Of a DNA stretch of 56,801 nucleotides, positions 8,801-24,647 are shown in pieces. Where the stretch lies: NCBI GenBank assembly GCA_964594235.1, contig CAZQMF010000005.1, positions 1 to 56,801 of the forward strand, in the 5' to 3' direction. Numbering within the stretch: the stretch's first letter is position 1; every line of letters starts with the position of its first letter. The translations under genes and the position numbers were made by a program. The stretch is from an uncultured Acidimicrobiia bacterium (GTDB taxonomy: Bacteria > Actinomycetota > Acidimicrobiia > Spongiisociales > UBA4744). The notes beneath the pieces are model-generated. The model was given only the letters and a program-made list of their open reading frames with translations, was not told where the DNA came from and made no database searches.

Positions 8801-9188
8801 GGACTCCCCTCGCACGTTTCGCTTGGATACGCCGTCGGCGTGCCTCGGGGGGCGGTTTGGTCGGAACGCGAGGCGTCTCCTCGACCAGTGCCTCCCGGAG
8901 GGTTGCGACGAGTCGTCGTCTCGCCGTCTGACGGTTGCGCCATTGCGAGCGTTCCTCGTCGGCGCCGACAACCAGCATCCCGCCCTTCAGTGTGAGCCGT
9001 TCGACCAGCTTGCCTCTCGTCACCTCGTCGAACGCAACGGACGCGCCGACGTCGAACACCAACTCCACGCCGGTGTGCGAACGGTTCGCATGCTGACCTC
9101 CTGGACCGCCGGTTGTGCGAAACCGCCATACGAGCTCGTCGGCCGGGATCTCGATCTGCTCCGTGACGCGGAGTGGGTCACCGCTCAT
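8766..9188 (-). CDS. arfB: Alternative ribosome rescue peptidyl-tRNA hydrolase ArfB
   Basis: GGPGGQHAN (GGQ motif), ERSQWRNR, basic C-terminal tail PTKP...KRARG..KRLR. Confidence 0.88.
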   Translation of the reverse strand: MSGDPLRVTEQIEIPADELVWRFRTTGGPGGQHANRSHTGVELVFDVGASVAFDEVTRGKLVERLTLKGGMLVVGADEERSQWRNRQTARRRLVATLREALVEETPRVPTKPPPEARRRRIQAKRARGVLKRLRRPPEAE

Positions 9189-10468
9189 TGCTCACTCCGT
9201 TTCGGTTTGCCGAGGTCGGTTCGGGGAATCCGATCCACGAGGCTCCACAGTTTGGGCACCTTGTAGCCGGCCAGACGATCCCTGGCCCACGCAGCAAGCT
9301 CGGCCTCGTCGACGGTCGGCGCCACAACGACCGCTCGCAGCGTACGTCCCCACCGTTGGTCGTCCACACCGGTAACGACCACATCCACGACCTGCGGATG
9401 CTGCGACAGCACCGCTTCCACCTCGGCCGGGTACACGTTCTCTCCTCCGGTGATCACCATGTCGTCCAGGCGTCCCAGCACGACGAGCTTTCCCTCGTCG
9501 TCCATCATGCCGGCATCACCCGTGCGGTACGGCCCGACTCGTGGGGTCTGTCGCCAGTACCCGGACGACACCATCGGCCCCTCGACAACGATCTCACCGT
9601 GGTCGATGCCGATAGCTACACCGGGGAGCGGTGTGACCGCGCGGGCACCGGGACGACCCGTTGCCACCTGCGCGGCGGTCTCGGTCGCCCCATATGTGGG
9701 TACTGCGGGAATGCCGAGATCGTTCGCCTGCTCGAGCAGTCCGGGAGGTAGTGGGCCACCCCCGACCAGCACCGTCCTGAGCCGCTCGAACGGTCCCTCG
9801 GCGTAGGGGATGAGTCTCGAGAGCATGTTCGGTACGAATGACGCGAACTCCACGTCGTGAAGTAGCGACGCGGTGCGTTCCGGATCGAAGCGACGCTCCA
9901 GAACAACGGTGCCACCCACATGCACCGACCTGGTCAGGATCGAGAAACCGCCCACGTGGTTGAGTGGTAGGACTGCCAGCCAGCGGTCGCCCGAACGGTG
10001 ACCGAGAAACGAGGCCGATGCGTCTGCTGCAGCGAGCAGGTTCCCCGCCGTCAGCACGACGCCCTTGGGTTCGCCGGTCGAGCCGGACGTGGAGAACACC
10101 GCGACCGGTCGGCTCGCATCGGTCTCGTGAGGTTCGATCTCAGGCCCGTCGAGACCCAGCGGCTCGACGAGTTTCGCATCGAACCTTCGGCACAGTTCGG
10201 CGATTTCGGACCCGGTCAGCGCGGTTCCGATCGGCAACAAGATTCCTCCGGCTCGCGGCACGGCGAGCATCGTGATCACCGCCTCGACCGTCGATTCGGC
10301 CACCACCCCAACCAGCTCACCAGGCTCGATCACCGCGCGCACGTGGCCCGCCTCGCGGCTGATCATCTCCTCCGCGTGGGCGTACGAGATCGACTCCCCG
10401 CCCGTCACGAGGAACGCCGTGTCGGGGATGCGTTTCGCCTGTTCCGACGGCCACTCATTCACCCTCAC
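9185..10468 (-). CDS. menE: o-succinylbenzoate-CoA ligase
   Basis: AMP-binding motifs STSGSTGEPKG, YGATET, TGD, GRLDDMVITGGENV, PRTDLGK; lies next to menB. Confidence 0.85.
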   Translation of the reverse strand: MRVNEWPSEQAKRIPDTAFLVTGGESISYAHAEEMISREAGHVRAVIEPGELVGVVAESTVEAVITMLAVPRAGGILLPIGTALTGSEIAELCRRFDAKLVEPLGLDGPEIEPHETDASRPVAVFSTSGSTGEPKGVVLTAGNLLAAADASASFLGHRSGDRWLAVLPLNHVGGFSILTRSVHVGGTVVLERRFDPERTASLLHDVEFASFVPNMLSRLIPYAEGPFERLRTVLVGGGPLPPGLLEQANDLGIPAVPTYGATETAAQVATGRPGARAVTPLPGVAIGIDHGEIVVEGPMVSSGYWRQTPRVGPYRTGDAGMMDDEGKLVVLGRLDDMVITGGENVYPAEVEAVLSQHPQVVDVVVTGVDDQRWGRTLRAVVVAPTVDEAELAAWARDRLAGYKVPKLWSLVDRIPRTDLGKPKRSEQ

Positions 10469-10497
10469 TACAGTACCGGGCAGGCAACGGAGGCTCG

Positions 10498-11388
10498 ATG
10501 ACCACAGTCTCAGAGTTGTTCGACCCCGACCGATGGGTAGAGGTCGAACGGTTCGACGACATCACCTACCACCGTGCGATCGATCAAGGCACCGTACGGA
10601 TCGCGTTCAACCGACCGGAAGTCCGCAACGCCTTTCGTCCGCACACCGTCGATGAGTTGCATGCGGCGCTGGACCACGCACGTATGACCACTGACGTGGG
10701 AGTCGTCCTGCTCACCGGCAACGGCCCGTCTCCCAAGGATGGGGGATGGGCGTTCTGCTCCGGGGGGGACCAACGCATCCGAGGCGCCGACGGCTACCTG
10801 TACGAAGACGCCGATGGCGTCGACGCTGCCCGTCTCGGCAGGCTCCACATCCTCGAGGTTCAGCGCCTCATCCGCTTCATGCCGAAGGTGGTCATCGCAC
10901 TCGTACCCGGCTGGGCCGTGGGCGGTGGCCACAGCCTTCACGTGGTATGCGATTTGACGATCGCGTCACGCGAGCACGGGATCTTCAAGCAGACGGACGC
11001 CGACGTCGCGTCCTTCGACGGAGGCTACGGCTCGGCACTCCTCGCCCGCCAGATCGGGCAGAAGCGGGCCAGAGAAGTGTTCTTCCTCGGACGTGACTAC
11101 TCGGCGGACGAGGCGTTGGCGATGGGTGCGATCAACGCGTCGGTGCCGCATGTCGACCTGGAGAAGATCGGGCTCGAGTGGGCGGCCGAGATCAACGGGA
11201 AGAGCCCGACGGCGGTTCGGATGCTCAAGTTTGCCTTCAACCTGCTCGACGACGGCCTGGTCGGCCAACAACTCTTCGCCGGCGAAGCGACCCGTCTCGC
11301 CTACGGCACCGACGAAGCCAGAGAGGGCCGTGACGCGTTCCTCGAGAAGCGCCGGCCCGACTGGTCCCGCTACCCGCACCACTTCTGA
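10498..11388 (+). CDS. menB: 1,4-dihydroxy-2-naphthoyl-CoA synthase
   Basis: AFNRPEVRNAF, FCSGGDQ, LHILEVQRLIR, FKQTDADVASFDGGYG, GQQLFAGEAT. Confidence 0.97.
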   Translation: MTTVSELFDPDRWVEVERFDDITYHRAIDQGTVRIAFNRPEVRNAFRPHTVDELHAALDHARMTTDVGVVLLTGNGPSPKDGGWAFCSGGDQRIRGADGYLYEDADGVDAARLGRLHILEVQRLIRFMPKVVIALVPGWAVGGGHSLHVVCDLTIASREHGIFKQTDADVASFDGGYGSALLARQIGQKRAREVFFLGRDYSADEALAMGAINASVPHVDLEKIGLEWAAEINGKSPTAVRMLKFAFNLLDDGLVGQQLFAGEATRLAYGTDEAREGRDAFLEKRRPDWSRYPHHF

Positions 11389-11389
11389 G

Positions 11390-12283
11390 ATGCCGCCCGA
11401 TCCCGAAACGAGACTCGGTGCCTGGTACCTGGCATCGCGTCCTCACACGCTCCCTGCGGCGGTCGCCCCGGTCGCCGTGGCAGCGGGGTTGGCCATCAAG
11501 GACGGCGTCTTCCGATGGGGTCCCTTCCTCGCAGCTGCGATCGGGGCGCTCGCGATTCAGGTTGCCGCCAATTTCACGAACGACCTATCCGATGCGCGCA
11601 AAGGAGCCGACAACGAGGATCGCATCGGACCGCGCCGTGCGGTCGCGTCGGGGCTGTTGAGCGAACCGGCGATGACGGTCGCCACCGTCATGGCGTTCTC
11701 GGTCGCAACCGCTGCCGGCGTGTACCTCGTCACGCAGGCCGGTTGGATCATCGTCATCGTCGGAGTGGCGTCGATCTTCGCCACGCTGGGATACGTCGGA
11801 GGGCCGCGACCGTACGGGTACCGGGGGCTTGGTGAGGTGTTCGTGTTCGTGTTCTTCGGCCTGGTGGCAACGGTCGTGTCGCGCTTCGTGTACGACCGAA
11901 GCGCCCCTGCCGATGCCTGGCTACTTGCGATCCCCATGGGCTTTCTGGTCACCGCGATCCTGGTCGCGAACAACGTTCGGGACATCGACACCGATCGAGC
12001 GGCAGGCAAGCGGACGCTGGCAGTGATCCTGGGGCGTGAACGAACGCGCGTCTTCTTCGATGTGTTGGTGTGGGGCGCGTTCGTTCTGGTGGTCGTGTTC
12101 GTCGTGGGAGGGTGGACGCCACCGCTGTCCCTCTTGACGCTGCTGGCGGCCCCTTTGGCCGTCCCGATCACCAGAGCCATTCGCACGGCGACTGACGGTC
12201 CCTCCCTGATCGTCGCTCTGAAGGGGATCGCTCGGCTGGACTTGATCTTCGGCCTTCTCCTTGCGCTCGGGGTCGCTCTGTGA
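11390..12283 (+). CDS. menA: 1,4-dihydroxy-2-naphthoate polyprenyltransferase
   Basis: ASRPHTLPAA, ANFTNDLSD, YGYRGLGE, NNVRDIDTDRAAGKRTL; ATG 1 nt after the menB stop. Confidence 0.92.
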   Translation: MPPDPETRLGAWYLASRPHTLPAAVAPVAVAAGLAIKDGVFRWGPFLAAAIGALAIQVAANFTNDLSDARKGADNEDRIGPRRAVASGLLSEPAMTVATVMAFSVATAAGVYLVTQAGWIIVIVGVASIFATLGYVGGPRPYGYRGLGEVFVFVFFGLVATVVSRFVYDRSAPADAWLLAIPMGFLVTAILVANNVRDIDTDRAAGKRTLAVILGRERTRVFFDVLVWGAFVLVVVFVVGGWTPPLSLLTLLAAPLAVPITRAIRTATDGPSLIVALKGIARLDLIFGLLLALGVAL

Positions 12284-12360
12284 ACCAACCAAGGCAGTCT
12301 CTTATACTCGGGTGCGTCTTACATACAACAGGCTGATACTGCGCGCTCTCGAGGTTCGAA

Positions 12361-12380
12361 TAAGGGACTTTCGGCCCTAT
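12361..12380 (+). promoter_or_regulatory. DosR/DevR-type box upstream of the hexaheme lipoprotein
   Basis: TAAGGGACTTTCGGCCCTAT versus mycobacterial consensus TTSGGGACTWWAGTCCCSAA. Candidate -10 TACAGT at 12412-12417. Confidence 0.7.
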
Positions 12381-12443
12381 TCCAACAGCATGTCGGCAAC
12401 GATCCATGGCGTACAGTTTTGGGGTCGACAGAAAGGGTCGAGG

Positions 12444-13445
12444 ATGAGACGCTCGTTGTTGCTCTTGGCCGTGCTCGCGCTGGTCGTCGCGGCATGCACA
12501 GGCCCGGCAGGCCCGGTTGGACCCGAGGGTCCCCAGGGTGTCGCCGGTCCTGCGGGACCGCAGGGACCGGCAGGAGAGAACGCCACCTTCACCGCGACCG
12601 ACCTCACGTGCACGGAGTGCCACAACGACGGGTCGACGCTCACCGGCAAGGCCCTCGAGTGGTCGACGTCGGGACATGGAATGGGAACCACGTACCTACG
12701 CGCGACCACTGCCTCGTGCGCGGGATGCCACTCGGGCAACGGCTTCACCGACCGCATCACCGCAGGGATCTCGAATCCCGATGAGGTCGCTGATGGCCAG
12801 CACGACCCGACGAGGGAAGACTGCCGCGCCTGCCACCAGATCCACACCACGTACACCAGCGACGACTTCGCGTTGACGACGACGGACCCGGTGGTCCTGT
12901 ACGCGAGCGGCGAAACGTTCGATCTCGGAATGGGCAACCTGTGCGCCAACTGCCACCAGCCGAGGAGAACCCTCCCCGAGGCCGCTGCGGATGGCACGAT
13001 CGAGATCGACAGCACGCACTGGGGCCCGCACCATGGTCCGCAGTCGGCGGTCATGTTGGGCATCGGCGGTTCGACGGACGGTAGCCCCGCGGCCCACTAC
13101 CAGCTGATTGCAGATGGCTGTCCTGCATGCCATATGGGTGAGAACGCCAACCACTCGTTCGCTCCCGACACGGCCAACTGCCAGGGGTGCCACGAGGGCC
13201 TGGACACGTTCGACTACAACGGTGTCCAAACCGAGATCAAGGATCTCTTCGACCAGCTCGGCCAGGCCCTCCAGGCCAAAGGGCTGCTCGATGCGGACCT
13301 GACGCTGGTTCCAGGAAGCTATCCAGCAGCACAAGCAGGAGCCGCGTGGGACTACGAGATGATCAGCGACGACGGAAGCTGGGGTGTGCACAACCCGGGC
13401 TATGTCAAGGCACTGCTCACCGCAGACATCGCAGCCCTGCAGTAG
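12444..13445 (+). CDS. Hexaheme c-type cytochrome lipoprotein with collagen-like stalk
   Basis: MRRSLLLLAVLALVVAA-C lipobox, then (G-X-Y)9. Six CxxCH: CTECH, CAGCH, CRACH, CANCH, CPACH, CQGCH. C-terminal GSWGVHNPGY; 333 aa. Confidence 0.92.
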   Translation: MRRSLLLLAVLALVVAACTGPAGPVGPEGPQGVAGPAGPQGPAGENATFTATDLTCTECHNDGSTLTGKALEWSTSGHGMGTTYLRATTASCAGCHSGNGFTDRITAGISNPDEVADGQHDPTREDCRACHQIHTTYTSDDFALTTTDPVVLYASGETFDLGMGNLCANCHQPRRTLPEAAADGTIEIDSTHWGPHHGPQSAVMLGIGGSTDGSPAAHYQLIADGCPACHMGENANHSFAPDTANCQGCHEGLDTFDYNGVQTEIKDLFDQLGQALQAKGLLDADLTLVPGSYPAAQAGAAWDYEMISDDGSWGVHNPGYVKALLTADIAALQ

Positions 13446-13465
13446 AACACACGTCGACCCTTGTG

Positions 13466-13492
13466 AGAGCGGCGCCCGTCGGGCGCCGCTCT
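13466..13492 (+). terminator. Hairpin downstream of the lipoprotein cytochrome
   Basis: Perfect 12-bp stem AGAGCGGCGCCC-gtc-GGGCGCCGCTCT, 20 nt after the stop. Confidence 0.65.
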
Positions 13493-13501
13493 TGCGTTCT
13501 C

Positions 13502-13595
13502 AATCTTCAGTCTCCAGTCCTCAGTCCTCAGTCAGAACGCTGCCTGCAGCACCGCTAGACCGTGGGCGAGTGTGGACTACCGAGAACCTAGAGCT
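13502..13595. repeat. Heptamer-armed repeat E2
   Basis: AATCTTC AGTCTCC AGTCCTC AGTCCTC AGTC-AGAACGCTGCC ... GGCGAG.. GACTACC GAGAACC TAGAGCT. Confidence 0.75.
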
Positions 13596-13720: not shown

Positions 13721-14089
13721 TCAACCCTTGACCGCAGCGACCCAAAACCGGTGAGCCGTCGCTCGGAGCGGTGCACCCGCCTTTTCGACTTCCGAGTGTG
13801 GCCGCTCGAGGTGCGTGCGATCGCGTCGAACGCCGCTACTCGCCACGGGACCGCTCTCAGGTAGGAGACGAGTGCGCCGACGTCTGAGAACTTCTCCAAG
13901 GACCTCATCGCCGGCATTCACCTCGATCCCGGCCTGCTCGTCCGCGGCAAACGTGAGATCCCATCAGGCAACCTCCGTCCGAACCACGCAACACTTCGCG
14001 GAGCCGTCCCGCTGCGTGAGGAAGACTCCACCGGGTGACCCGTTCGGTCGGCGAGTGGCCTCATGCCGGTTCATGATCAGATCGAACGC
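13721..14089 (-). pseudogene. Degraded C-terminal half of a class I SAM-dependent methyltransferase
   Basis: Collinear family motifs spread over two frames with an internal TGA: AFDLIMNRHEA, PGGVFLTQ, WDLTFAAD, FSDVGALVSYLRAVPW, then LERPH..ATAHRFWVAAVKG*. No N-terminal SAM-binding motif. Confidence 0.7.
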
Positions 14090-14183
14090 TCTCAGCCATC
14101 AGCCATCAATGACGAAGCTGCTCACCGCGAGCCGCGGTTCATGATTCGGGCGGATGACTGATGACTCAGGACTGAAGACTCAG
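14090..14183. repeat. Heptamer-armed repeat E3
   Basis: Left TCTC AGCCATC AGCCATC; right GATGACT GATGACT CAGGACT GAAGACT CAG, which overlaps the cytochrome stop codon. Confidence 0.75.
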
Positions 14184-15772
14184 TACCCCTGCTCGGGTGT
14201 GTGGCACGAGGTGCATTTCTCTATCTTCCATGCGCCCCCGATCGGAACGGGATGCTTGAAATCGAGACCGTTGATGCTGGAGTCGAGATCGGCGAGGTTC
14301 GCAGATTGTCCTTGCGCGGTGATGATGTGGCACACGTCACACTCCGACGAGACCGTTGTCCCGTCATACGTCTGGAGATCCGAGTTGTGGCATCTGAAGC
14401 AGCCGTCGTTGGTGAAGTGGCTGAGGTTGTTCTCACGAGTCCTGTAGTCGGTCTTCATCTCGGGGAAGAAGTTCTGGTTGTAGATCACCACTAGCGTCGC
14501 GGCCGCCTGGTCGACCTTCGCCTGATCCACGGTGCCCGCATACTTCTCTGAATAGAACGCCTCGAGACCCGTCCTGATGGCTTCGTCGGCCTGGTCCCTG
14601 GTCGTGTAGGGAGCGTTCAGGAGGTTGAGCCCCTCCCATCGCACGAACGGCAGGTCGGTCGAGATGGTGCCCTTGGTCATCTCGAGGTTGATAGCGGTGG
14701 CCGGCGGCTCGTAGTCGTGACTTGGCCTGTTGTGGCAGTCGATGCAGTCGAGCGTCCTCACTTCGATGCCTGCGGCGTTCAAGTCGACCTGCTGACCGTT
14801 CTTCCAGTACTCGGTCACCTTGTCGGTCGTCTTGTCGGTCAGCCGAACCCAGACCATGTCCTGTCGTTTCGGATCGTCGGTCGCGTACTCGATCGTGGTG
14901 CTGCCGAGCATATGCCAGTGGATGCCTCCCACCTGGCCGGTTCTCGGGTCACCGCCACCGATCTTGACAGCGAGACTGATCGTCCACGGAGTGTTGTTCT
15001 CGTCCGTGCGGAAGTACGTCTTCGTGACGAGCTTGTCGCCGTAGAACTGCTGGGGCCAGTGACATCCTTCGCACGTCTCCTGCGCGGGACGGAGGCTGGT
15101 CACCGGAGTGACGATAGGCCGATCGTAGGTATTGGTGATCGTCTTCCACACCTGCCGCAAACCGTCGATCTTCGACCTCACGAAGAACGATGCGCCCGGT
15201 CCGATGTGGCACTGGGCGCAGGCAACCTTGGCGTGCGGCGAATGCTGGTATGTGACCCACTCCGGTTCCATTACGGTGTGGCACGACTCGCCACAGAACG
15301 ACGACGAGTCGGTCACCTCGTACCCCTTGAACCCGCCCCATGCGACCGTACCAACGAGTACAGCGGAAAGGACGCCGAATATCGCGAGGGACCGCATGTA
15401 CCTGGGGCTGGACGGCTCAACGCGAAGATTGAACCGGATGCGCTCGCCGCGCTTGCGGGCTCTCACGACCTGGATCCGGATCGCGATCGCAAACAGAATC
15501 GCGCCCAACAGGACGATTACAGGGAACCCGATGAAGGTAACGAGTCCCCTATACGGGTTGGAGACGGGTGAACTGAGGTCGACGAACGCCAGGACCGCGA
15601 ATCCCAACAGCCCTGCGAGTACCAACGCCCCACCGACGGCAGCGAGCGGATGTCGGTACAGGCTCCGTACCTCGGTCTTCACCTCTTCGGTGTCGGTGCC
15701 GTTGCCGCCGGTGTTCTCGTCGCTACCGGTGTTCTCGGTGTTCTCGGCCGAATCCTCGATCTCGTCGCTCAC
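14180..15772 (-). CDS. imcH: ImcH-like membrane multiheme cytochrome c (NapC/NirT N-terminal domain, 7 heme motifs)
   Basis: Three N-terminal TM helices. CGESCH, SPHAKVACAQCHIGPGA, LRPAQETCEGCHWP, GIHWH, DCIDCHNRP, NFFP, GCFRCH, CDVCH, CTSCH. GTG start with GAGGAGG RBS. Confidence 0.88.
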   Translation of the reverse strand: MSDEIEDSAENTENTGSDENTGGNGTDTEEVKTEVRSLYRHPLAAVGGALVLAGLLGFAVLAFVDLSSPVSNPYRGLVTFIGFPVIVLLGAILFAIAIRIQVVRARKRGERIRFNLRVEPSSPRYMRSLAIFGVLSAVLVGTVAWGGFKGYEVTDSSSFCGESCHTVMEPEWVTYQHSPHAKVACAQCHIGPGASFFVRSKIDGLRQVWKTITNTYDRPIVTPVTSLRPAQETCEGCHWPQQFYGDKLVTKTYFRTDENNTPWTISLAVKIGGGDPRTGQVGGIHWHMLGSTTIEYATDDPKRQDMVWVRLTDKTTDKVTEYWKNGQQVDLNAAGIEVRTLDCIDCHNRPSHDYEPPATAINLEMTKGTISTDLPFVRWEGLNLLNAPYTTRDQADEAIRTGLEAFYSEKYAGTVDQAKVDQAAATLVVIYNQNFFPEMKTDYRTRENNLSHFTNDGCFRCHNSDLQTYDGTTVSSECDVCHIITAQGQSANLADLDSSINGLDFKHPVPIGGAWKIEKCTSCHTPEQGY

Positions 15773-17251: not shown

Positions 17252-18010
17252 TCAACTGCTCCCGACCAGAAACCGGCCCACCTCGTCAGCGACCTTGTCG
17301 GGCGCTTCACCAATCACAGCATGACCCGCTCCTTCCACCGTGACAAGCATCCCGCGTGGAGCTGCAGAGGCGATTCGCGTGCCGATCGCAACGTAGGCAG
17401 GGTCGAGTGCACCAGCGACGACCAGCACTGGCATCCGGAGCTCCCCCAGTCGGCCACCGAAGTATGGTTGAGAGCCCTGACCCATTCCGCGAAGCGCGGC
17501 TGCGAGCCCCGCTGTGCGGTTCTCGAGACGAAGCTTCCTGTCCCGTTCACACCACTCGGATCCACGACGGTGCAGGCCATCGAGCAACGGCTGAGCGAGC
17601 CAGCGATCGATGAACGGCTCGAGTCCCTCGCTCTCGATCCGGTCGGCGAGCACGGCGTCCGACTTCAGCCGATCTCTGCGCAGGCCTGGATCGGCGATTC
17701 CGGGGCTGGACGACACGAGGATCAGGTGAGATACCGACCGGGGATACTCGACGGCTACTCCCAACGCGATGCGCCCGCCCTGTGAGTAGCCGAGGAGGGG
17801 CCTGCGCTCGACGGTCTGCGCCACCGACCTCACGGCCGACTCGAAGGCGGGCGGAATGCCACCCGCTGCTCCATGGCCGGGCAGATCCGGTGCGTCCACC
17901 TGCCACGGAAGGAACGCAGCGAACTCCTCGAACATCCCTCCGTGCTGTGTGAAGCCATGCAACGCGACGATCGCCGGTTCGACGCCTGGGAATCTTCGAA
18001 CGGTTTCCAT
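17252..18010 (-). CDS. menH: SHCHC synthase (alpha/beta hydrolase)
   Basis: LHGFTQ, GYSQGGRIAL, FIDRWLAQPLL, LRGMGQGSQP, GAGHA; divergent from menD. Confidence 0.85.
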   Translation of the reverse strand: METVRRFPGVEPAIVALHGFTQHGGMFEEFAAFLPWQVDAPDLPGHGAAGGIPPAFESAVRSVAQTVERRPLLGYSQGGRIALGVAVEYPRSVSHLILVSSSPGIADPGLRRDRLKSDAVLADRIESEGLEPFIDRWLAQPLLDGLHRRGSEWCERDRKLRLENRTAGLAAALRGMGQGSQPYFGGRLGELRMPVLVVAGALDPAYVAIGTRIASAAPRGMLVTVEGAGHAVIGEAPDKVADEVGRFLVGSS

Positions 18011-18018
18011 CGCCTGTA

Positions 18019-19656
18019 TTGTTGCTCCCCGTGAACGACAGCGCCTATCAGGCGGCCGCCCTATTCGTCGATGCGCTCGCACGACTCGGGCTTCGCCACG
18101 CGTGCGTCACGCCCGGATCTCGAAGCACTCCCCTCGCCCTGGCGTTCGCCGAGCATCCTGACGTCGCCGACTGGATCCACCACGACGAACGGTCATCGGC
18201 GTTCTTTGCCCTCGGAATCGCGAAAGTGACTCGAACTCCCGCCGCGATCATCACCACATCCGGCACAGCTGCGGCCGAACTCCTCCCTGCTGCCGTCGAA
18301 GCACGCCACGCGGGGGTTCCCCTGCTCTTGCTCACCGCCGACCGGCCCCCCGAGCTCAGAGGAATCGGCACTCCGCAGACGATCGACCAGGTGAACCTGT
18401 TTGCGAACGCGACCCGAATGTCGCTCGATGTCCTCCTGGTGGACATGCCTACGGGAGAAGTCGAGGCGCTCGCCGTGACGGCGTGGAGTGAGGCGGTGCG
18501 AAGACCCCGTCGCCCCGTCCACATCAACATGGCATTCCGAGAACCCTTCGTACCCACGACACTCGACCGACCCAGGGCGTCGGTGACTCCGACGCGAACA
18601 ACCGATCCCGTCCTCGAGGAGGACGAGCTCCGCGAGATGTCATCGATGCTCGGTGCGAAGCGTGCCCTGACGATTGCCGGCCCAATCGACGAGCCGGGGT
18701 TCCCCGACCATGTTCTCGCGTTGGCGACGACCTCCGGGTGGCCGATCGTCGCGGACCCTCTGAGCCAGCTCCGGAGCAAGGTTTCCGATCTCGTCCTCGA
18801 TGCCGGGGACGCCCTGTTTGCCGCCGGTCGTCTGCCGGCGAAGCCCGAGGTGATCGTCCGGCTCGGGGCAACGGTCACGTCGAAGGCGATCTCCTCCTGG
18901 CTGGCGGATCATCGGAAGATTCCACAGGTCGTCGTCGACGAAGAAGGTCGGGACGCGTCGCGCAGCGCAGCGAAGGTTCTCTCCATCGACCCGATCACGT
19001 TCGTTCGTTCACTCCAAGTGGAGCCGGCCCCCGACGAGTGGGCCGACCAGTGGACGGACGCCGACCGGCGAGCACGCGCCGCGCTTCGAGGATCACCATT
19101 TCCTTCGGAACCAGCGGTGGTCGAGATCCTTGCCGAGTGCCTCCCCATCGAGTCGGTGCTCTTCGTGGCATCGTCCATGCCGATTCGCAATGTCGACCGA
19201 TACCTTTCACGGGTCGATGCCCGCGTCCTGTCCAACAGGGGCGCAAACGGGATCGACGGCCTGATCTCATCTGCACTGGGTGTCGCAGCGACGGGGCGGC
19301 GCACATTCGTACTGGCCGGTGATCTCTCGTTGTTGCATGACGTAGGTTCCCTTGCGACTGCCGTTCGACTCGACCTTCCGATCACGATCGTCGTCGTGAA
19401 CAACGATGGCGGCGGGATCTTCTCGTTCCTCCCCCAGGTGGCGCTTCCCCGCCACTTCGAGCGTGTCTTCGGCACACCCCACGGCCTCTCGTTCGTGCCC
19501 ATCGCCGACGCATTCGGGCTCCGCGCCGTGCACGCCGACACCGCCGATCGGCTGGCATCGGAACTCGCCCTACCAGGCCTCATAGAGGTGACGACCGACA
19601 GGGCTCGCGAAGTCGAGCTGCAGGCAAGAGCCCTCGAGAGAGTCGCGTCGTCGTAG
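18019..19656 (+). CDS. menD: SEPHCHC synthase (ThDP-dependent)
   Basis: PGSRSTPL, DERSSAFFALG, TTSGTA, LTADRPPEL, SNRGANGIDG, GDLSLLHD, NNDGGGIF. Start may be GTG at 18031. Confidence 0.95.
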   Translation: MLLPVNDSAYQAAALFVDALARLGLRHACVTPGSRSTPLALAFAEHPDVADWIHHDERSSAFFALGIAKVTRTPAAIITTSGTAAAELLPAAVEARHAGVPLLLLTADRPPELRGIGTPQTIDQVNLFANATRMSLDVLLVDMPTGEVEALAVTAWSEAVRRPRRPVHINMAFREPFVPTTLDRPRASVTPTRTTDPVLEEDELREMSSMLGAKRALTIAGPIDEPGFPDHVLALATTSGWPIVADPLSQLRSKVSDLVLDAGDALFAAGRLPAKPEVIVRLGATVTSKAISSWLADHRKIPQVVVDEEGRDASRSAAKVLSIDPITFVRSLQVEPAPDEWADQWTDADRRARAALRGSPFPSEPAVVEILAECLPIESVLFVASSMPIRNVDRYLSRVDARVLSNRGANGIDGLISSALGVAATGRRTFVLAGDLSLLHDVGSLATAVRLDLPITIVVVNNDGGGIFSFLPQVALPRHFERVFGTPHGLSFVPIADAFGLRAVHADTADRLASELALPGLIEVTTDRAREVELQARALERVASS

Positions 19657-19658: not shown

Positions 19659-20786
19659 TCAGCCGGTCAGGACATCGAGGATCGCTGCGAGTTTCGCCTC
19701 GGTCTCGGCCACCTCGGCTGCCGGGATGGAATCCCGGACGATCCCGGCCCCCGCGTAGACCTGCGCGATCGAGCTACGAAACAGAGTCCCTCGGAGAGCG
19801 ATGATGGCCTCTCCGTCGCCGTTCTCATCCATCCAGCCCAGCGCTCCCGCGTACCACCCCCGGTCGAATGGCTCGTTCTCTTTGATGAAGAGGAGTGCAG
19901 CATCGGTTGGCGTGCCCGCAACGGCAGGGGTCGGGTGCAACGCCTGCGCGAGGTCGATGAGGCTGACGCCCGGGAGCGCCGTTCCAACGATCTCCGTCCC
20001 GAGGTGTTGAATGTTGGGCAGGCGAACCACCGATGGCGTGTCGGGGACGGCCAGCTCGGTCGTGACGGCCCTCAAGATGCGAGCGACCTCGTCGACGACG
20101 ATTCGATGTTCCTCGCCTTCCTTCGAAGCAGCGAGCAGTGCGATCGCGATCCGTTCGTCGTCATCATGCCCTGTCCCACGAGGGGCGCTCCCAGCGAGTG
20201 GGAACGACCGGACGGACGCGCCATGTCTCTCGATGAGCAGTTCCGGGCTGGCACCGAGAAACGCGGTCCCCTGCTCGATCCACCCGTAGAGGAACGTGTT
20301 CGGAAACCGTTCACCCATCGGGGCAAGAAGATCGAAGGGATGCCCGCGCTCCACGGCGACGTCGACCCGCCGAGCGAGCACGACCTTCGACAGCACGCCG
20401 GAGTCGATCTCGTCTATAGCTCGTCTGACGAGCCCGGCCCACTCATCCGCCGTGGGCACTTCGGCAACCACCCGACCTCTCGGCACATCGGGCGGCCCCG
20501 GCACACGAAGTGACTCGAGGAGACCCTCCGCACCGGGCGCGGTATGGACCCGAACCCCCTCGTCGTCCTTGACGACGGTTACCGCCGGAACCACGACGCT
20601 GCCGGCCGACTTCGGCTCGAAAGGAAGCACGAACATGCACCGTGGACCCTCGGGACGCGGCGTTCTCAGATCGGCGGAGCGCCACGCGACACCGATCCCG
20701 GCGAACTCCTCCCTGCCCCGGAAGTAGACAACCGGGTGCCCGGCCGCGGCCCCGGCCCTGGCTACGTCGAAGGGTTCCGGTTCCAC
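19659..20786 (-). CDS. menF: Isochorismate synthase
   Basis: KVVLARR, GASPELL, LAGSAPRG, KEGEEHRIVV, LHPTPAVAG, RGWYAG, AGAGIVRDS. Start uncertain. Confidence 0.88.
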   Translation of the reverse strand: MEPEPFDVARAGAAAGHPVVYFRGREEFAGIGVAWRSADLRTPRPEGPRCMFVLPFEPKSAGSVVVPAVTVVKDDEGVRVHTAPGAEGLLESLRVPGPPDVPRGRVVAEVPTADEWAGLVRRAIDEIDSGVLSKVVLARRVDVAVERGHPFDLLAPMGERFPNTFLYGWIEQGTAFLGASPELLIERHGASVRSFPLAGSAPRGTGHDDDERIAIALLAASKEGEEHRIVVDEVARILRAVTTELAVPDTPSVVRLPNIQHLGTEIVGTALPGVSLIDLAQALHPTPAVAGTPTDAALLFIKENEPFDRGWYAGALGWMDENGDGEAIIALRGTLFRSSIAQVYAGAGIVRDSIPAAEVAETEAKLAAILDVLTG

Positions 20787-20796
20787 GGCGGGCAGT

Positions 20797-21576
20797 CTAC
20801 GAGTCGAAGTACCCGACGATCTCATCGGCCACCAAACCGGGCCGTTCCATCGGAAGGAAGTGCGACGCGCCGGCAACGATCTCGTAGCGGGCGTTGGGCA
20901 TTCGTCTGGTCAGAGCGGCGGTCGACGCGTCGCTGAGCGTCGTGGAGTTCTCCCCGGCGAGTACAAGTACAGGACACCCAACTTCGTCGAGTCGGTCGTA
21001 CAGGCCGTGCGCTGTCGCGGCTCGGTACACCTCGGCCTCCACTTCCGGCCTGCACTTGAGCCACCAGCGGCCGTCTCGCTCGACGAATCCTCCGTCGACG
21101 TAGGCGGCGAGGACATCGGGACTCCAGGACGCAAAGGGGTCTTTGCCCCGGTAGTTGTCGATGATGGCCTCGCGGCTATGGAATCCGTCCCGCCGCCGCA
21201 GCGCGCCTTCGGCAAGAGGAATGTGCTCCATTCTCCTGTACGGCGGGGGGAAGATGATCGGTTCGATAACGACGAGCGCCTTGAACCGGCCGGGTCGTAG
21301 CACCTCCGCCATGAGCAGTGTTGCTCCTCCCATCGAGTGGCCCACCCCGATTGGGTGACCATCGAACGGTTCGAGGACGTCCAGCGCGTGGCGAGCGAAG
21401 GACCACCAGTCCGCCGGGGGAACGAACCCGTTGGCATCGCCGTGACCGGGGGCGTCCCAGGCGGTGAACGGTCGCCCGGCGAGCTGTTCTCCGACCGGCC
21501 CCCACACCTCCTTGCAGAATCCGGTCGCGTGGGCGAACGCGACGAACTCGGAGTTCACTCTCGTCTCAACCGTCAT
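20797..21576 (-). CDS. Alpha/beta hydrolase
   Basis: HATGF, DAPGHG, nucleophile elbow GHSMGG, C-terminal HFLPME. Confidence 0.88.
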   Translation of the reverse strand: MTVETRVNSEFVAFAHATGFCKEVWGPVGEQLAGRPFTAWDAPGHGDANGFVPPADWWSFARHALDVLEPFDGHPIGVGHSMGGATLLMAEVLRPGRFKALVVIEPIIFPPPYRRMEHIPLAEGALRRRDGFHSREAIIDNYRGKDPFASWSPDVLAAYVDGGFVERDGRWWLKCRPEVEAEVYRAATAHGLYDRLDEVGCPVLVLAGENSTTLSDASTAALTRRMPNARYEIVAGASHFLPMERPGLVADEIVGYFDS

Positions 21577-22201
21577 CCACGTCGAAGGCGACGTGAGACT
21601 CCAGCCTGACCACGCCGTCGATGCGACGAATCAGCGCCTCCAGGAGCCGCGCGTCGGTCGCGGTCGGCGCGGTACCGGAGATCGTCACCACCCCGTTCGC
21701 GACATCGACATCGAGCGAGTTCGCTTCCAAGAGGAGCACTCGTTTGACGATGTCTTCGCGGATCTCGTCTTCGATCACGTCGTCGGGTCGCGTGAATACG
21801 GCCACCACGTCGGCCCTGCTGATGATTCCGACCAGCGCTCCGCTCGAGTCGACCACAGGAAGCCTCTTCACGTGGTGGTGTGCCATCACACGGGCGGCTT
21901 CCGTGACAGTCGCTTCGGGAAAGATGACGACCGGTTCGCGCGTCATCACCTCACCAACCGTTTCGGCATCGACGATCGGACCGCGCTCTTCGATCATTGC
22001 ACTGAGGAGTCGCCGCTGAGGTCGATCCGCTTCCCTCTCGAGGAAGTCCGCCTCGGTGATGATTCCGACCAGCGTGCCCGATTCGTCGACGACTGGGAGT
22101 CCGCTGACACCGGCTCCGACCATCACGCGGGCAGCCTCCTTGAGGTAGGTCGATGGCGTGGTCGTGATCACATCGATGGTCATGATGTCGAGGACCCTCA
22201 C
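21566..22201 (-). CDS. CBS-domain pair plus C-terminal BON domain protein
   Basis: VSGLPVVD..GIITEAD and VKRLPVVD..GIISRAD, then DVDVANGVVTISG. GTG overlaps the USP stop (GTGA). Confidence 0.9.
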   Translation of the reverse strand: MRVLDIMTIDVITTTPSTYLKEAARVMVGAGVSGLPVVDESGTLVGIITEADFLEREADRPQRRLLSAMIEERGPIVDAETVGEVMTREPVVIFPEATVTEAARVMAHHHVKRLPVVDSSGALVGIISRADVVAVFTRPDDVIEDEIREDIVKRVLLLEANSLDVDVANGVVTISGTAPTATDARLLEALIRRIDGVVRLESHVAFDVDDG

Positions 22202-22629
22202 GTGCACGGTCCCTTCACCACGAGCACATCGCACGAGGAAAGGTGCACGACCCTGTGGCTCGTGCTACCCAACACGAGCGCTGCGAGTTCGCCCCGTCCT
22301 CTCGATCCGACGACGATGAGCTCAGCCTCGACCTTCTTGGCGTACTCGACGAGCGCATCCGCCGGATATCCGTCCAGGTCGACCTTGTGGATGTCCACCG
22401 AGGTATCGACAATCAGTGGATCGACGACACTCCATACGAGTTCCCGCTGCGACTGCACCAATGTTGAGAGATCGGCCGGCACCTGACTCAGCGCTCCGAG
22501 CAGGCTGCTCGGGATGTGCGATACGTGCACGACATGGAGATCGGTCCCTCGAGACTCGGCAAACTCCACCGCTCGTCGAACCGCGAGAAGCGAGTGCTCC
22601 GATCCGTCCGTCCCAACGACGATACTCAT
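22198..22629 (-). CDS. Universal stress protein (UspA family)
   Basis: IVVGTDGSEHS, LIVVGSRGRG, LGSTSHRVVH; start MSIVVG overlaps the response-regulator stop. Confidence 0.93.
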   Translation of the reverse strand: MSIVVGTDGSEHSLLAVRRAVEFAESRGTDLHVVHVSHIPSSLLGALSQVPADLSTLVQSQRELVWSVVDPLIVDTSVDIHKVDLDGYPADALVEYAKKVEAELIVVGSRGRGELAALVLGSTSHRVVHLSSCDVLVVKGPCT

Positions 22630-23294
22630 GACTCCTCCCACTGTTCCGGCGGATACTCCCGCTCGCGTTTGGCCGCGAGTCGTGCCGAGTAGGCCGCAGC
22701 TTCCGTCCTGCGTGTCATTCCGAGCTTGTTCAGAAGGTTCGACACATAGTTCTTGACCGTCTTCTCGGCGAGGAACAGCTCTTCTGCGATCTCCTTGTTC
22801 GTGAGGCCCTCTGAGATCAAGTCGAGGATCTTGCGCTCCTGGGGCGACAGCCTCGCCACGAGCGGATCGGTTGGTTCGTCGCCACGGATCCGACGGAAGA
22901 CATGTTCGGTCATCGTCGGGTCGAGGAGCGACTCGCCGGCGCCGACTCGGCGGATGCTGTCGATCAGCTGGCGAGCATCGACGCGCTTGAGGACGTAGCC
23001 CGACGCACCGGCCATGATCGACGCGAACAGAGCCTCTTCGTCGGCGAATGACGTCAGCATCAGCACGCGCACGTCCGGCCAGCGTGAACGGATCTCTCTG
23101 CACGCCTCGATGCCGGTCCCGTCTGGCAAACGCACATCCATGACGACCACTTCCGGCCGGTCGTACCCCACACGGCGAATGGCCGATTCGACGGTGCCCG
23201 CCTCGCCGACGACCTCGAGGCCGTCCTCTCCGCCGAGCAGCGTCACCAGACCCTTTCTCACGATCTCGTGGTCATCGACGATCAGAATCCGCAC
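22626..23294 (-). CDS. dosR: DosR/DevR-like NarL-family response regulator
   Basis: VDDHEIVRKGL, DVRLPDG, LTSF, GASGYVLK, GESLLDP. HTH EGLTNKEIA..FLAEKTVKNYVS carries the same recognition helix as M. tuberculosis DevR. Confidence 0.85.
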   Translation of the reverse strand: MRILIVDDHEIVRKGLVTLLGGEDGLEVVGEAGTVESAIRRVGYDRPEVVVMDVRLPDGTGIEACREIRSRWPDVRVLMLTSFADEEALFASIMAGASGYVLKRVDARQLIDSIRRVGAGESLLDPTMTEHVFRRIRGDEPTDPLVARLSPQERKILDLISEGLTNKEIAEELFLAEKTVKNYVSNLLNKLGMTRRTEAAAYSARLAAKREREYPPEQWEES

Positions 23295-23330
23295 ATGTCC
23301 TCCTTACCTTTTCAGGCTACCGGGTCGGGC

Positions 23331-23491
23331 GGTCTTGGGTTCTCGGTCTTGGGTTCTCGGTAAGAGGGATCCCTTCGCTCGCCCTTCTGAGTTCATGGTT
23401 CTCGGTCTTCGATGAGACCGTCGCTGTCCCGTGGACTCGTGGTCTCCGGGATCGCGCTCCTACCCACAACCGACAACCGAGAACCCAAGAC
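23331..23491. repeat. Heptamer-armed repeat E4, followed by GC hairpin 23493-23511
   Basis: (GGTCTTG GGTTCTC)x2 GGT ... ACCCACA ACCGACA ACCGAGA ACCCAAG AC; the arms share a 16-nt perfect complement. Confidence 0.85.
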
Positions 23492-23531
23492 GGGGCGGGC
23501 TCCGCCCGCCCTGGCACTAGCCTGATCGACA

Positions 23532-24647
23532 ATGACGCGGCCCATGATCCCCGCCTCGCGGCTCTCCGACCTGATCGGTGCGGCAGCACGTGTCACCGGT
23601 CAGACCGAACTCACCGCAGTCCTGGAGACGGTGGTGGCAACTGCCATGGACCTGACGGGAGCACCGTACGGCGCCCTCGGCGTCGTCAGCGAGAACGGCC
23701 AGCTCATCCAGTTCGTCCATCAGGGCATGCCCGAGAAGATCGCTGAGCTGATCGGTGCACCTCCGAAGGGTCGGGGTCTGCTCGGTGCGGTTACATGGCA
23801 GCCAAACCCGATCCGGCTCGAGAATGCCCAATCCCACCCTCGTGCCAGCGGCTTTCCCAAGCATCATCCGCAGCTCGACGGCTTTCTCGGTGTCTCGATC
23901 CGCATCGGCGGCGACGTATTCGGAAACCTGTATCTCGGAGCGTCGCAAGGAGGCTTCACAGAACAGGATGAGACGCTGATCCAGGCCCTCGCGCTCATCG
24001 CAGGGTCGGCGATCTCGACTCTCAGGCTGCAGGCGCGGCTTCGGAGGGCCGCCGTCCTGGAGGACCGTCAGCGCATCGCTCGGGACCTCCACGACTCCAT
24101 CATCCAGGACCTCTTCGCCGTCGGTCTGTCCCTCCAGGCTCTCACATCCCGCCTCTCCGACCCCGAGATGCGCACGAGCCTGGAGGAGGCCGCACTGCAT
24201 CTCGACGACTCGATCACCGCGCTGCGACGGTTCATCTTCGATCTTCGTCCGGCCACCCTGGGCACGCGCAATCTCAAGGACGAGCTGTCGGAGCTGCTCG
24301 GACGCCTGGCCGTTCCCTACGAAGCAAGCATCGGCATCGGCGTGACCGGTCCAGTCGACGACCTCGTTCCGGAACTGGTCGACAACGTTCTCCAGATCAC
24401 GAGGGAAGCGGTGAGCAACGCGTTGCGCCACTCGGGAGCGGACGTGGTGAGTATCTCCGTCAGTCGAGGCATCGATCGGCTCGTATTGACGGTCGTCGAC
24501 AAGGGCAAGGGCTTCGACATCGAATCGATCGCCCGCGGCATGGGTCTCGACAACATCCGGAGCCGCGCCGAGACGGCAGGGGGCGAGGCCGACGTGGAGA
24601 GCAAGGTTGGTGAGGGGACCACCGTTCGGGTGGTGCTTCCTCTCTAG
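23532..24647 (+). CDS. DosS/DosT-like sensor kinase: single heme-type GAF + HisKA_3 + HATPase
   Basis: YGALGV, GFPKHHP, FGNLYL (DosS GAF-A motifs); IARDLHDSIIQ H-box; EAVSNALRH, VVDKGKGF, GMGLDNI. Confidence 0.88.
   Translation: MTRPMIPASRLSDLIGAAARVTGQTELTAVLETVVATAMDLTGAPYGALGVVSENGQLIQFVHQGMPEKIAELIGAPPKGRGLLGAVTWQPNPIRLENAQSHPRASGFPKHHPQLDGFLGVSIRIGGDVFGNLYLGASQGGFTEQDETLIQALALIAGSAISTLRLQARLRRAAVLEDRQRIARDLHDSIIQDLFAVGLSLQALTSRLSDPEMRTSLEEAALHLDDSITALRRFIFDLRPATLGTRNLKDELSELLGRLAVPYEASIGIGVTGPVDDLVPELVDNVLQITREAVSNALRHSGADVVSISVSRGIDRLVLTVVDKGKGFDIESIARGMGLDNIRSRAETAGGEADVESKVGEGTTVRVVLPL

Follow-up and report, generated by a model that had tools for sequence, protein, structure and literature searches.

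Background

Cytochromes on the surface of Gram-positive bacteria and the DosRST system of oxygen sensing are both well known. In Geobacter, the inner-membrane cytochrome ImcH is needed for extracellular acceptors above about -0.1 V (PMC6295460). Members of the ImcH family are recognised by three N-terminal transmembrane helices, a CX3CH motif beside the membrane domain and six CXXCH motifs (five to nine outside Geobacter), and homologs outside the Geobacter group are 31.5-49% identical to Geobacteraceae ImcH (PMC6295460); ImcH homologs in Actinobacteria were already tabulated in a 2018 survey. In Mycobacterium tuberculosis, the regulator DosR (DevR) acts in hypoxia as an activator at GGGAC-N4-GTCCC palindromes. 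It contacts bases through Lys179, Lys182 and Asn183 (PMC4082495). Its partner kinases DosS and DosT respond to NO, and the heme pocket in their GAF-A domains has a proximal His (149/147) and a distal Tyr (171/169). Here we analyse a 56,801-nucleotide stretch of DNA from an uncultured Acidimicrobiia bacterium (contig CAZQMF010000005.1 of assembly GCA_964594235.1, positions 1 to 56,801; hereafter, the window), in which a gene for an ImcH-like cytochrome and a gene for a lipoprotein cytochrome with a collagen-like stalk lie among menaquinone synthesis (men) genes and close to a dosR/dosS-like pair. We consider it moderately probable that these genes encode a route of electron export from menaquinol through ImcH to the stalked surface cytochrome, under the control of a DosR/DosT-type system.

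The window is contig C5 of a metagenome-assembled genome (MAG), labelled G000, whose assembly comprises 1.94 Mb and is 88% complete. Annotation with Pfam and NCBIfam covers the window from 8.7 to 28.8 kb. G003 and G004 denote congeners of G000 in genus g1, and g3, g4, g5 and g10 denote related genera. An initial annotation, made from the letters of the window, had described six men genes around two convergent multiheme cytochrome genes together with a dosR/dosS-like pair, in a host that was probably an actinobacterium. This inventory is correct, and the host belongs to Acidimicrobiia; its congeners are deposited as 'uncultured Acidimicrobiia bacterium'.

Identity of the two cytochromes

The protein encoded at 14180-15772 on the minus strand (530 amino acids; GTG start at 15772 after GGAGG) is, judged from its sequence, a member of the ImcH family, predicted to act as a heptaheme menaquinol dehydrogenase. 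Kyte-Doolittle analysis gives hydrophobic segments at residues 41-71, 74-105 and 125-148, and these helices align with the helices of homologs from Geomonas, Zixibacteria and Ignavibacteria. One CX3CH motif (CGESCH) directly follows the helices, and six CXXCH motifs complete the set. The protein matches PF03264 (NapC/NirT) at E 2e-12, and its sole sequence match in PDB is NrfH (2j7a). The ImcH reference in our alignment was a Geomonas homolog and not GSU3259: this 502-residue protein from a Geomonas (Geobacteraceae) MAG is 39% identical over residues 49-531 and collinear, with all seven heme motifs in register; this identity falls inside the published range of 31.5-49%. The name ImcH-like, given at the outset, is thus borne out by the family signature of PMC6295460, its length of about 500-530 residues included, and by an end-to-end alignment with a Geobacteraceae homolog. 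The family is very large and strongly conserved, with 55-60% identity between the window's protein and proteins of Zixibacteria and Ignavibacteria.

The second cytochrome gene, at 12444-13445 on the plus strand, encodes a hexaheme lipoprotein of 333 amino acids with six CXXCH motifs, the lipobox VVAAC and a collagen-like stalk of nine triplets, (G-x-y)9. Its N-terminus, MRRSLLLLAVLALVVAAC, forms the lipobox, whose Cys is invariant in 45 homologs; these are named by their sources as Anaerolineales or Chloroflexi, or come without a name. In the alignment of the 45 sequences, the Gly found at every third residue of the stalk is invariant or at least 90% conserved, and six His outside the heme motifs are invariant. 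Because these six additional His are enough for all six hemes to be bis-His, the protein probably contains no heme with open coordination. Pfam matches are to MtrC/MtrF domain II/IV, cytochrome c7 and cytochrome c3, and the Pfam Collagen score of 20.3 bits lies under the 27.2 cut-off. A phmmer search of the lipoprotein against PDB sequences gave no match. When its AlphaFold2 model was compared with known structures by Foldseek, the top match was OcwA of Thermincola potens (6i5b; E 1e-4, probability 1.0) and the second was the S-layer undecaheme cytochrome 6qvm of Carboxydothermus ferrireducens; after that came NrfA, octaheme nitrite reductases and MccA. The evidence for an OcwA-like fold is moderate. 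The collagen-type cytochrome architecture recurs in thousands of metagenomic proteins.

The two-component pair and the dosR operon

The response regulator (22626-23294, minus strand) consists of REC and GerE/LuxR helix-turn-helix domains (Pfam) and is 55% identical to M. tuberculosis DevR. DevR is also its best PDB match (3c3w, E 1.2e-67), the next being VraR at 5e-44. The segment AEKTVKNYVS, which holds the residues corresponding to Lys179, Lys182 and Asn183, is identical to that of DevR, and the D in vmDvrlpdg aligns with the phospho-acceptor Asp54. In NCBIfam, no DosR equivalog scored for the regulator, and the best match, MadR, was below its cut-off. This is the sole DosR-type regulator in G000; the next NarL-type paralog is 36% identical.

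The kinase (23532-24647, plus strand; 371 amino acids) has one GAF domain (residues 25-161), followed by HisKA_3 and HATPase domains. Its GAF domain is 48% identical to the GAF-A domain of DosT (2vzw, E 5e-37). GFPKHHPQL and FGNLYL of the kinase align with GFPLHHPPM and FGNLYL of DosT, so that the proximal His and the distal Tyr are kept, and Gly occupies the position of DosT Gly85, where DosS has Glu87. The kinase core matches those of DosT and DevS (3zxq and 3zxo) at E about 1e-12. By these alignments, the kinase is a single-GAF variant of the DosT/DosS type, and the pair first described as dosR/dosS-like resembles DosR and DosT down to the residues that contact DNA and line the heme pocket.

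The regulator gene heads a run of genes on the minus strand. In the direction of transcription it is followed by a universal stress protein gene (usp, 22198-22629; Pfam Usp, E 5e-31), whose start overlaps the dosR stop (GTGATGA), a gene for a protein with a CBS pair and a BON domain (21566-22234; CBS E 1.4e-32, BON E 1.7e-11), an alpha/beta hydrolase gene (20797-21576, assigned by Pfam) and, last, menF, encoding isochorismate synthase (19659-20825, with a frame open to 20876; TIGR00543, 267 bits against a cut-off of 225). The candidate starts of menF, ATG at 20825 and GTG at 20786, lie inside the hydrolase gene or 10 nt after it. Because the frames overlap or abut throughout, a single transcript from dosR to menF is plausible. 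This position of menF at the end of the same-strand run is the only structural tie between dosR and the men genes. The arrangement in which dosS diverges from the dosR-usp-cbs/bon-hydrolase unit recurs in eight more genomes, which belong to four families.

DosR-type boxes upstream of the cytochrome genes

The initial annotation had placed DosR-type boxes in both cytochrome promoters; they are present, and their positions are conserved across genera and families. Upstream of the lipoprotein cytochrome gene, the box ATAAGGGACTTTCGGCCCTATT lies at 12360-12381 with its centre 73.5 nt before the ATG; its core at 12364-12377, GGGACtttcGGCCC, has one mismatch. Upstream of imcH, two abutting boxes occupy 15819-15860. 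The proximal one (15819-15840) is the weaker and is centred 57.5 nt from the start codon, and the distal one (15839-15860), centred at 77.5 nt, contains the exact core GGGACtcctGTCCC at 15843-15856.

The box of the lipoprotein cytochrome gene is identical in sequence in G003 and G004 and nearly identical in g3, and its centre lies 73.5-76.5 nt before the ATG in g1 and g3. The two-box layout at imcH is the same in G003 and G004, with the exact second box 20 nt further upstream in g1. Across the order, a box with at most one mismatch precedes imcH in 20 of 30 loci, and in 12 loci of g1, g4 and g10 the centre of the proximal box lies 56.5-61.5 nt before the imcH start, while spacers and flanks vary (e.g. 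GATAGGGACTAACGTCCCTAGG, GATCGGGACCATGGGCCCTATG and AGAAGGGTCTATCAGCCCTACG). In each of three g4 genomes of 3 Mb, the exact palindrome TAGGGAC-N4-GTCCCTA is present a single time, and this copy always lies at imcH; the reversed pattern, used as a control in the same genomes, gave 0. For scoring, we built a position weight matrix (PWM) from 15 sites found upstream of cytochrome genes. Among 46 imcH loci of other phyla, none reached a PWM score of 10 and one had a box with at most one mismatch; four Acidimicrobiia loci in the same control set score at least 14.7. Boxes also precede genes for 10-heme, 8-heme collagen-type and 9-heme proteins in the larger clusters of g3 and other families. These comparisons support the view that the boxes are conserved operators of cytochrome genes across genera and families.

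In two other families, boxes also occur between dosR and dosS, namely at 3071-3092 of locus L122 (G024:C131; PWM 16.7) and at 2899-2920 of locus L125 (G038:C66; PWM 10.6). These boxes tie the motif to the DosR regulator and suggest autoregulation of dosR in G024 and G038; the window's genus has apparently lost it. In G000, no box was found at the menE/menB or menH/menD promoters, at the dosR promoter and the dosR-dosS intergenic region, upstream of the pyruvate:ferredoxin oxidoreductase (PFOR) gene or at a second usp gene.

The palindrome at 15843-15856 was also considered as an intrinsic terminator, and this reading was rejected. The consensus terminator scan flags it on the plus strand only, and no gene ends there; in the orientation of the upstream gene, no U-run comes after the palindrome, and the box persists in genera in which the neighbouring genes differ.

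Distribution among relatives

ImcH is found in 28 of 61 relatives. The initial annotation had tied its case to co-occurrence, and here the association is strict in one direction: the lipoprotein cytochrome is confined to genomes that bear ImcH, 16 of the 28, and occurs in none of the 33 ImcH-negative genomes. A DosR ortholog is more widespread (49 of the 61) and is found in 27 of the 28 ImcH-positive genomes.

Synteny in the relatives, whose survey across Acidimicrobiia genomes the initial annotation had proposed as a check, gave a divided answer. The order of men, cytochrome and dosRS genes is kept in g1 (three species) and also in g3 and g5, where it is interrupted by additional multiheme genes. 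Boxed imcH in g4 and four other families lies with other cytochrome genes, far from men and dosRS, and in most genera dosRS is unlinked to imcH.

Other predicted targets in the genome

When sites in G000 were ranked by the PWM, the box of the lipoprotein cytochrome scored 24.7, a site on contig C90 scored 23.1 and the third best scored 16.1. The C90 box was outside the training set of the matrix. This box, GATTGGGACTTTCGGCCCTATC (in the region C90:4781-4901), is almost the same as that of the lipoprotein cytochrome gene, and its centre lies 73.5 nt before the ATG of a gene for a Tat-signal protein cut by the contig end. In the counterpart locus of G004 (L109, G004:C9, 589-3830), a Rieske protein gene is followed by a cytochrome b gene and then by a gene for a 695-residue fusion of cytochrome b-C with seven c-type heme domains. 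The C90/L109 operon has the look of a second, alternative complex composed of a Tat-Rieske protein, a split cytochrome b and cytochrome b-C fused to seven monoheme c domains. A weaker box, GGTAGGGCCCTATGGCCCATGT (PWM 12.1), lies 96.5 nt before a lipoprotein gene on contig C19 (region C19:27997-30333); the next gene in this operon encodes a cytochrome with at least nine hemes and is cut by the contig end.

A single cluster elsewhere holds what in G000 is scattered. In locus L116, from an unrelated MAG of 53% GC (GCA_936417185.1, CAKYTP010000002.1, 4793-16581), a cytochrome cluster stands beside ccmE/F/H and a different LuxR-type two-component system. It encodes a collagen-type hexaheme lipoprotein cytochrome (53% identical to that of the window), a 9-heme protein, a CbcL-like b/c cytochrome, a Rieske protein, cytochrome b, the cytochrome b-C/7-heme fusion and an ImcH-like protein with eight motifs. 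The transcription units that share a box in G000 therefore correspond to one gene cluster in this organism, and it is possible that L116 represents the complete form of the system. No DosR-type boxes were found in the L116 cluster. Among the 9- and 10-heme proteins that relatives add, some are lipoproteins with Thr/Pro-rich linkers.

G000 also contains two heme-copper oxidase genes and ccm genes, which imply respiration of O2 and a capacity to mature c-type cytochromes; in such a cell, switching to other acceptors than O2 would make sense.

Gene order and neighbouring genes

The block starts with a gene for an RF-1-domain protein, followed by menE-like (minus strand), menB, menA and the lipoprotein cytochrome gene (all plus), a 734-bp gap, and then imcH, a P-loop protein gene and menH-like (all minus) and menD (plus); beyond these come the minus-strand run from dosR to menF, the divergent kinase gene (plus), a CsoR-like gene and the PFOR gene. 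Base composition across the block is unremarkable.

The menE-like gene (9185-10468, minus; o-succinylbenzoate-CoA ligase) has AMP-binding domains, and its best NCBIfam match, TIGR01923 menE, reaches 284 bits, under the cut-off of 330. The cut-offs, of equivalog or subfamily type, are passed by menB (10498-11388, plus; 1,4-dihydroxy-2-naphthoyl-CoA synthase; NF006186, 560 bits against 378), menA (11390-12283, plus, with its ATG at 11390; 1,4-dihydroxy-2-naphthoate polyprenyltransferase; NF004751, 316 against 264) and menD (18019-19656, plus; 2-succinyl-5-enolpyruvyl-6-hydroxy-3-cyclohexene-1-carboxylate synthase; TIGR00173, 408 against 244). The menH-like gene (17252-18082, minus) encodes an alpha/beta hydrolase, a likely 2-succinyl-6-hydroxy-2,4-cyclohexadiene-1-carboxylate synthase, whose best match (TIGR03695, 175 bits) is under the cut-off of 209. 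MenC was not seen in the annotated part of the window. A gene for a UbiE-like methyltransferase lies at 42075-42779 (minus); the 5' end of its longest open reading frame (ORF) is overlapped by a tRNA at 42700-42785 (minus; Rfam, 52 bits), so that the UbiE-like gene must start immediately after the tRNA.

Between imcH and the menH-like gene lies the gene for a P-loop protein of 441 amino acids (15917-17242, minus), for which we found no Pfam or NCBIfam family over the cut-off and no PDB sequence match; relatives are named 'GTPase' or 'cyclic 2,3-diphosphoglycerate synthase' by their sources. The protein is highly conserved and widespread in Acidimicrobiia and Anaerolineae. Its gene adjoins menH also in g3 and g5, where additional genes part it from imcH.

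In the gap between the two cytochrome genes, a GC-rich hairpin at 13467-13491 (plus; GAGCGGCGCCC-gtc-GGGCGCCGCTC), read from the sequence after the stop codon of the lipoprotein cytochrome gene, is likely to be a terminator. G003 and G004 share it. Because of its weak T-run, the hairpin escaped the consensus terminator scan. Further on, a stretch of about 380 bp downstream of imcH (13800-14179) is clearly more conserved among the three g1 species than the left half of the gap. This segment has no shared open frame; it carries indels of 6, 7 and 14 nt, the frames are broken differently in each species, and peptide-like fragments (MNRHEATRRPNGSPGGVF... and DLTFAADEQAGIEVNAGDEVLGEV...) are spread over different frames. 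The segment may represent a gene that has decayed or is frameshifted, or else an RNA. In the gap as a whole, we found no shared ORF, no Rfam family and no clear tblastx remnant of the extra cytochrome genes of g3.

Short tandem 7-8-mers (CAGTCCT/AGGACTG, GGTTCTC/GAGAACC and CAACCGA) cluster beside GC-rich hairpins at gene ends, at 13500-13535, 14150-14179, 23330-23365, 23395-23415, 23465-23490, 24680-24700 and 24795-24820. Their orientation is opposite on the two sides of a gene, and copy number differs between species (e.g. for ATCAGCC repeats). They look like a family of intergenic repeats.

Beside dosS lies a boxless block of anaerobic or fermentative character, with a CsoR/RcnR-like repressor gene (24885-25142) and the PFOR gene (25262-28837). 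The next ORF, 28838-29846, was missed by a filter on GC content at third codon positions (GC3) and is, from its translation only, probably dihydroorotate-dehydrogenase-like. A fusion of GNAT with an ADP-forming acyl-CoA synthetase is encoded at 30514-33243. A mannosylglycerate synthase of the single-step type (Pfam MGS_GT and MGS_C), encoded at 33253-34425 (plus), points to synthesis of a compatible solute. Together with the P-loop gene, if that is cyclic 2,3-diphosphoglycerate-synthase-like, it hints at an osmotically or thermally stressed habitat.

Discussion

In the reading that we favour, the two convergent cytochrome genes would form a minimal extracytoplasmic electron-transfer module of a monoderm Acidimicrobiia bacterium. 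The DosT-like heme kinase would respond to the loss of O2, or alternatively to NO, CO or a redox change; with a DosT-like heme-GAF domain in this kinase, falling O2 or one of these other signals is the likely trigger. The DosR ortholog, encoded 6.8 kb away, would bind palindromic (TA)GGGAC-N4-GTCCC(TA) operators at a fixed distance from the start codon and, once bound, would activate the promoters of an electron-transfer network. The ImcH-family heptaheme protein, anchored by three helices, would oxidise menaquinol at the outer face of the membrane. Electrons would pass from it directly, or via the box-controlled Rieske/cytochrome b/7-heme complex and the protein with at least nine hemes, to the lipid-anchored, probably all bis-His hexaheme cytochrome of OcwA-like fold, which a short and probably trimeric collagen-like stalk would hold off the membrane. 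The final acceptor would lie outside the cell and could be Fe(III), Mn(IV), humics or a partner cell. The surrounding men genes would supply the lineage's only quinone from outside the regulon, with only menF co-oriented with the dosR operon. Sequence comparison shows the gene identities, the conserved operators and the co-occurrence, and from these we infer that DosR binds, which way regulation runs, what the signal is, how electrons travel and which acceptor they reach. A DosR-type cytochrome regulon is well supported as a prediction, and low oxygen probably switches on electron export, because DosR-type sites in both cytochrome promoters are conserved in relatives.

Several observations weigh against this reading. 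Counts of the motif show no excess: the window contains 49 matches with at most two mismatches, where shuffled sequences lead one to expect 67, and the 1.94 Mb of G000 contain three exact matches, where about seven are expected from base composition. The signal of the boxes lies in placement and conservation, not in counts. Note that the training sites of the PWM lay upstream of cytochrome genes; where imcH and the lipoprotein gene are concerned, its scores are therefore circular. With the mycobacterial 20-mer consensus TTSGGGACTWWAGTCCCSAA, nothing convincing emerged in G000, the best site matching at 16 of 20 positions and the few that were checked lying inside ORFs. There is no clear box directly upstream of imcH in g3, g5 and some other families, and the boxless dosR promoter and second usp gene in g1 are unlike the M. 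tuberculosis regulon. The 371-residue kinase has no second GAF domain, where DosS and DosT have GAF-A and GAF-B in tandem, and Geobacter ImcH is reported to be constitutively expressed. As for the lipoprotein, its model is moderate, with a mean pLDDT of 70.7 and values below 50 in the heme-rich N-terminal half, and its superposition on OcwA gives a TM-score of 0.42 (TMq), a root-mean-square deviation of 7.8 A and 22% identity. The OcwA/NrfA superfamily takes in reductases of soluble substrates, and OcwA itself reduces nitrite and hydroxylamine. Finally, nine triplets correspond to an inferred length of about 8 nm and may not span a Gram-positive wall.

Some of these points lead to other explanations. 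The two cytochromes might be an NrfH/NrfA-like reductase, either respiratory or detoxifying, whose substrate is soluble (nitrite, NO, hydroxylamine, sulfite or tetrathionate) and in which an ImcH-type dehydrogenase feeds a catalytic hexaheme lipoprotein and control by DosR reflects sensing of NO or hypoxia. The match of the N-terminal heme region of the ImcH-like protein to NrfH, the run of NrfA, octaheme nitrite reductases and MccA as the only fold matches of the lipoprotein after OcwA and 6qvm, the activity of OcwA on nitrite and hydroxylamine and the response of DosS and DosT to NO would all agree with it. We nevertheless regard such a reductase as unlikely: the lipoprotein has no CXXCK motif, its six invariant additional His fit six bis-His hemes and leave no open site, and in fold it comes closest to two surface cytochromes from metal-reducing Gram-positives. 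A conserved lipid anchor and a collagen-like spacer would have no obvious use in a reductase of this kind, and relatives add 9- and 10-heme proteins and CbcL-like genes, as in clusters for electron export. Still less probable, in our judgement, is the opposite direction of flow, that is, uptake of electrons: Fe(II), a cathode-like mineral or a syntrophic partner would deliver them to the menaquinone pool, or else to the Rieske/cytochrome b complex and on to the oxidases. In principle, multiheme conduits can work both ways, reducers and oxidisers alike have CymA and CbcL-type proteins, and in G000 the same boxes precede the Rieske/cytochrome b/multi-cytochrome c complex in a genome with two heme-copper oxidases; however, the 2018 survey found ImcH homologs in Fe(III) reducers only, a DosT-like O2 sensor fits induction without O2 and is wrong for aerobic oxidation of Fe(II), and the uphill reduction of menaquinone by Fe(II) should be unfavourable.

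A further doubt concerns the regulator. The boxes could belong to another protein, or DosR could repress or answer a signal other than oxygen, with the nearness of dosRS to the cytochrome genes a coincidence. This would account for the boxless dosR promoter of g1, for the TA...TA flanks, which are unlike the M. tuberculosis consensus that finds no good sites here, and for the mostly unlinked dosRS and the different LuxR-type system flanking the L116 cluster. Nevertheless, the core GGGAC-N4-GTCCC has its half-sites arranged as those of DosR are, all three residues that contact bases are the same as in M. tuberculosis DosR, and the genome encodes one such regulator, with its next NarL-type paralog only 36% identical; the dosR-dosS intergenic boxes of G024 and G038 and the DosR orthologs in 27 of 28 ImcH-positive genomes point the same way, and we think a different regulator or signal quite improbable. 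The initial annotation had gone further than the favoured reading and had joined menaquinone synthesis, quinol oxidase, surface relay and oxygen switch in a single locus. That part of the claim which concerns proximity stands, in that all genes lie within 15.5 kb, and their order is kept in the three g1 species and, with extra cytochrome genes, in g3 and g5; menF even follows the dosR operon directly on the same strand. What did not stand is common control, as no men promoter carries a box. Moreover, the composition of the block is unremarkable, and g4 and four other families have boxed imcH apart from men and dosRS. In Actinobacteria, menaquinone serves generally as the respiratory quinone, so that men genes are housekeeping genes. 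A single island from men to export is thus only partly supported, and a co-regulated and co-inherited unit of all four parts is, in our estimate, distinctly unlikely. By the pattern of boxes, the men genes are outside the regulated unit; they are best read as the housekeeping quinone pathway, and the insertion of the cytochrome genes among them as an accident of this lineage.

For electron export under DosR/DosT-type control, a bolder form can be put forward, if only tentatively: a heme-based O2 sensor of the DosT/DosR type, familiar as the dormancy switch of mycobacteria, would be the master switch of an undescribed monoderm export chain, from menaquinol through ImcH, with or without the Rieske/cytochrome b/7-heme complex, to a trimeric, lipid-anchored hexaheme cytochrome on a collagen-like stalk. 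The cytochrome family would be widespread in Actinomycetota and Chloroflexota, and imcH would be the DosR target of highest affinity in the genome.

In the literature searched, we found no paper linking DosR with multiheme cytochromes; two papers mention DosR beside extracellular electron transfer, and only incidentally. Neither did we find a description of a collagen-stalked cytochrome, of a conserved DosR-type operator on imcH and its partner cytochrome genes, or of a single-GAF DosT-like sensor. If the proposal is true, it joins two separate fields, oxygen sensing by DosRST and multiheme extracellular electron transfer, and it offers a testable logic for when abundant uncultured Acidimicrobiia of soil and sediment use external electron acceptors. 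It would also give a bacterium without an outer membrane a simple two-protein route from menaquinol to the surface, and it would mean that outside mycobacteria a DosR regulon can centre on respiratory cytochromes instead of dormancy genes. The operator provides a sequence tag by which more members of the system can be located in MAGs.

Comparison with known systems

With ImcH of Geobacter sulfurreducens (GSU3259), the inner-membrane quinol dehydrogenase for high-potential extracellular acceptors, the window's protein shares the three N-terminal helices, the CX3CH and six CXXCH motifs, the NapC/NirT-like region and a similar length. It differs from Geobacter ImcH by an acidic N-terminal extension of about 30-40 residues and by its host, a monoderm actinobacterium without a periplasmic cytochrome pool or an outer-membrane conduit; in addition, a predicted and conserved DosR-type operator precedes its gene, in contrast to Geobacter ImcH, for which constitutive expression is described. 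The NrfH-NrfA system likewise combines a quinol dehydrogenase of the NapC/NirT type with a multiheme partner from the NrfA-like fold family. Unlike in that system, the quinol dehydrogenase here is a three-helix protein with seven hemes, its partner, a stalked lipoprotein, has no CXXCK or evident catalytic heme, and the two genes are convergent and form no operon.

For the surface cytochrome, the nearest counterpart is OcwA, the cell-surface terminal reductase found in the Gram-positive Thermincola potens, which acts with the CwcA/ImdcA chain. Both have a monoderm host, and the model of the window's protein suggests that it shares the multiheme NrfA-like heme-packing fold. The window's protein has six hemes, in contrast to nine in OcwA, two of which have an open distal site, and it is held by a lipid anchor and a (G-x-y)9 stalk; the quinol oxidase of the system is of the ImcH type here and a decaheme protein there. 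The stalk itself recalls bacterial collagen-like proteins of the Scl and BclA type, in which an uninterrupted Pro-rich G-x-y repeat with strictly conserved Gly also follows the anchor directly, but here it has only nine triplets and is fused to a multiheme cytochrome.

On the regulatory side, the system shares with DosR (DevR), DosS and DosT of the M. tuberculosis dormancy regulon the identical base contacts, a heme pocket of the GAF-A type and the core GGGAC-N4-GTCCC. The tandem boxes at imcH and the presence of usp and CBS-domain genes in the dosR operon are further likenesses to that regulon. The kinase differs in having a single GAF domain and 371 amino acids, compared with 578 in the mycobacterial protein; the operator flanks are TA...TA, and the dosR promoter of g1 has no box. 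The best predicted targets here are multiheme cytochromes and a Rieske/cytochrome b complex, in place of the usual dormancy genes.

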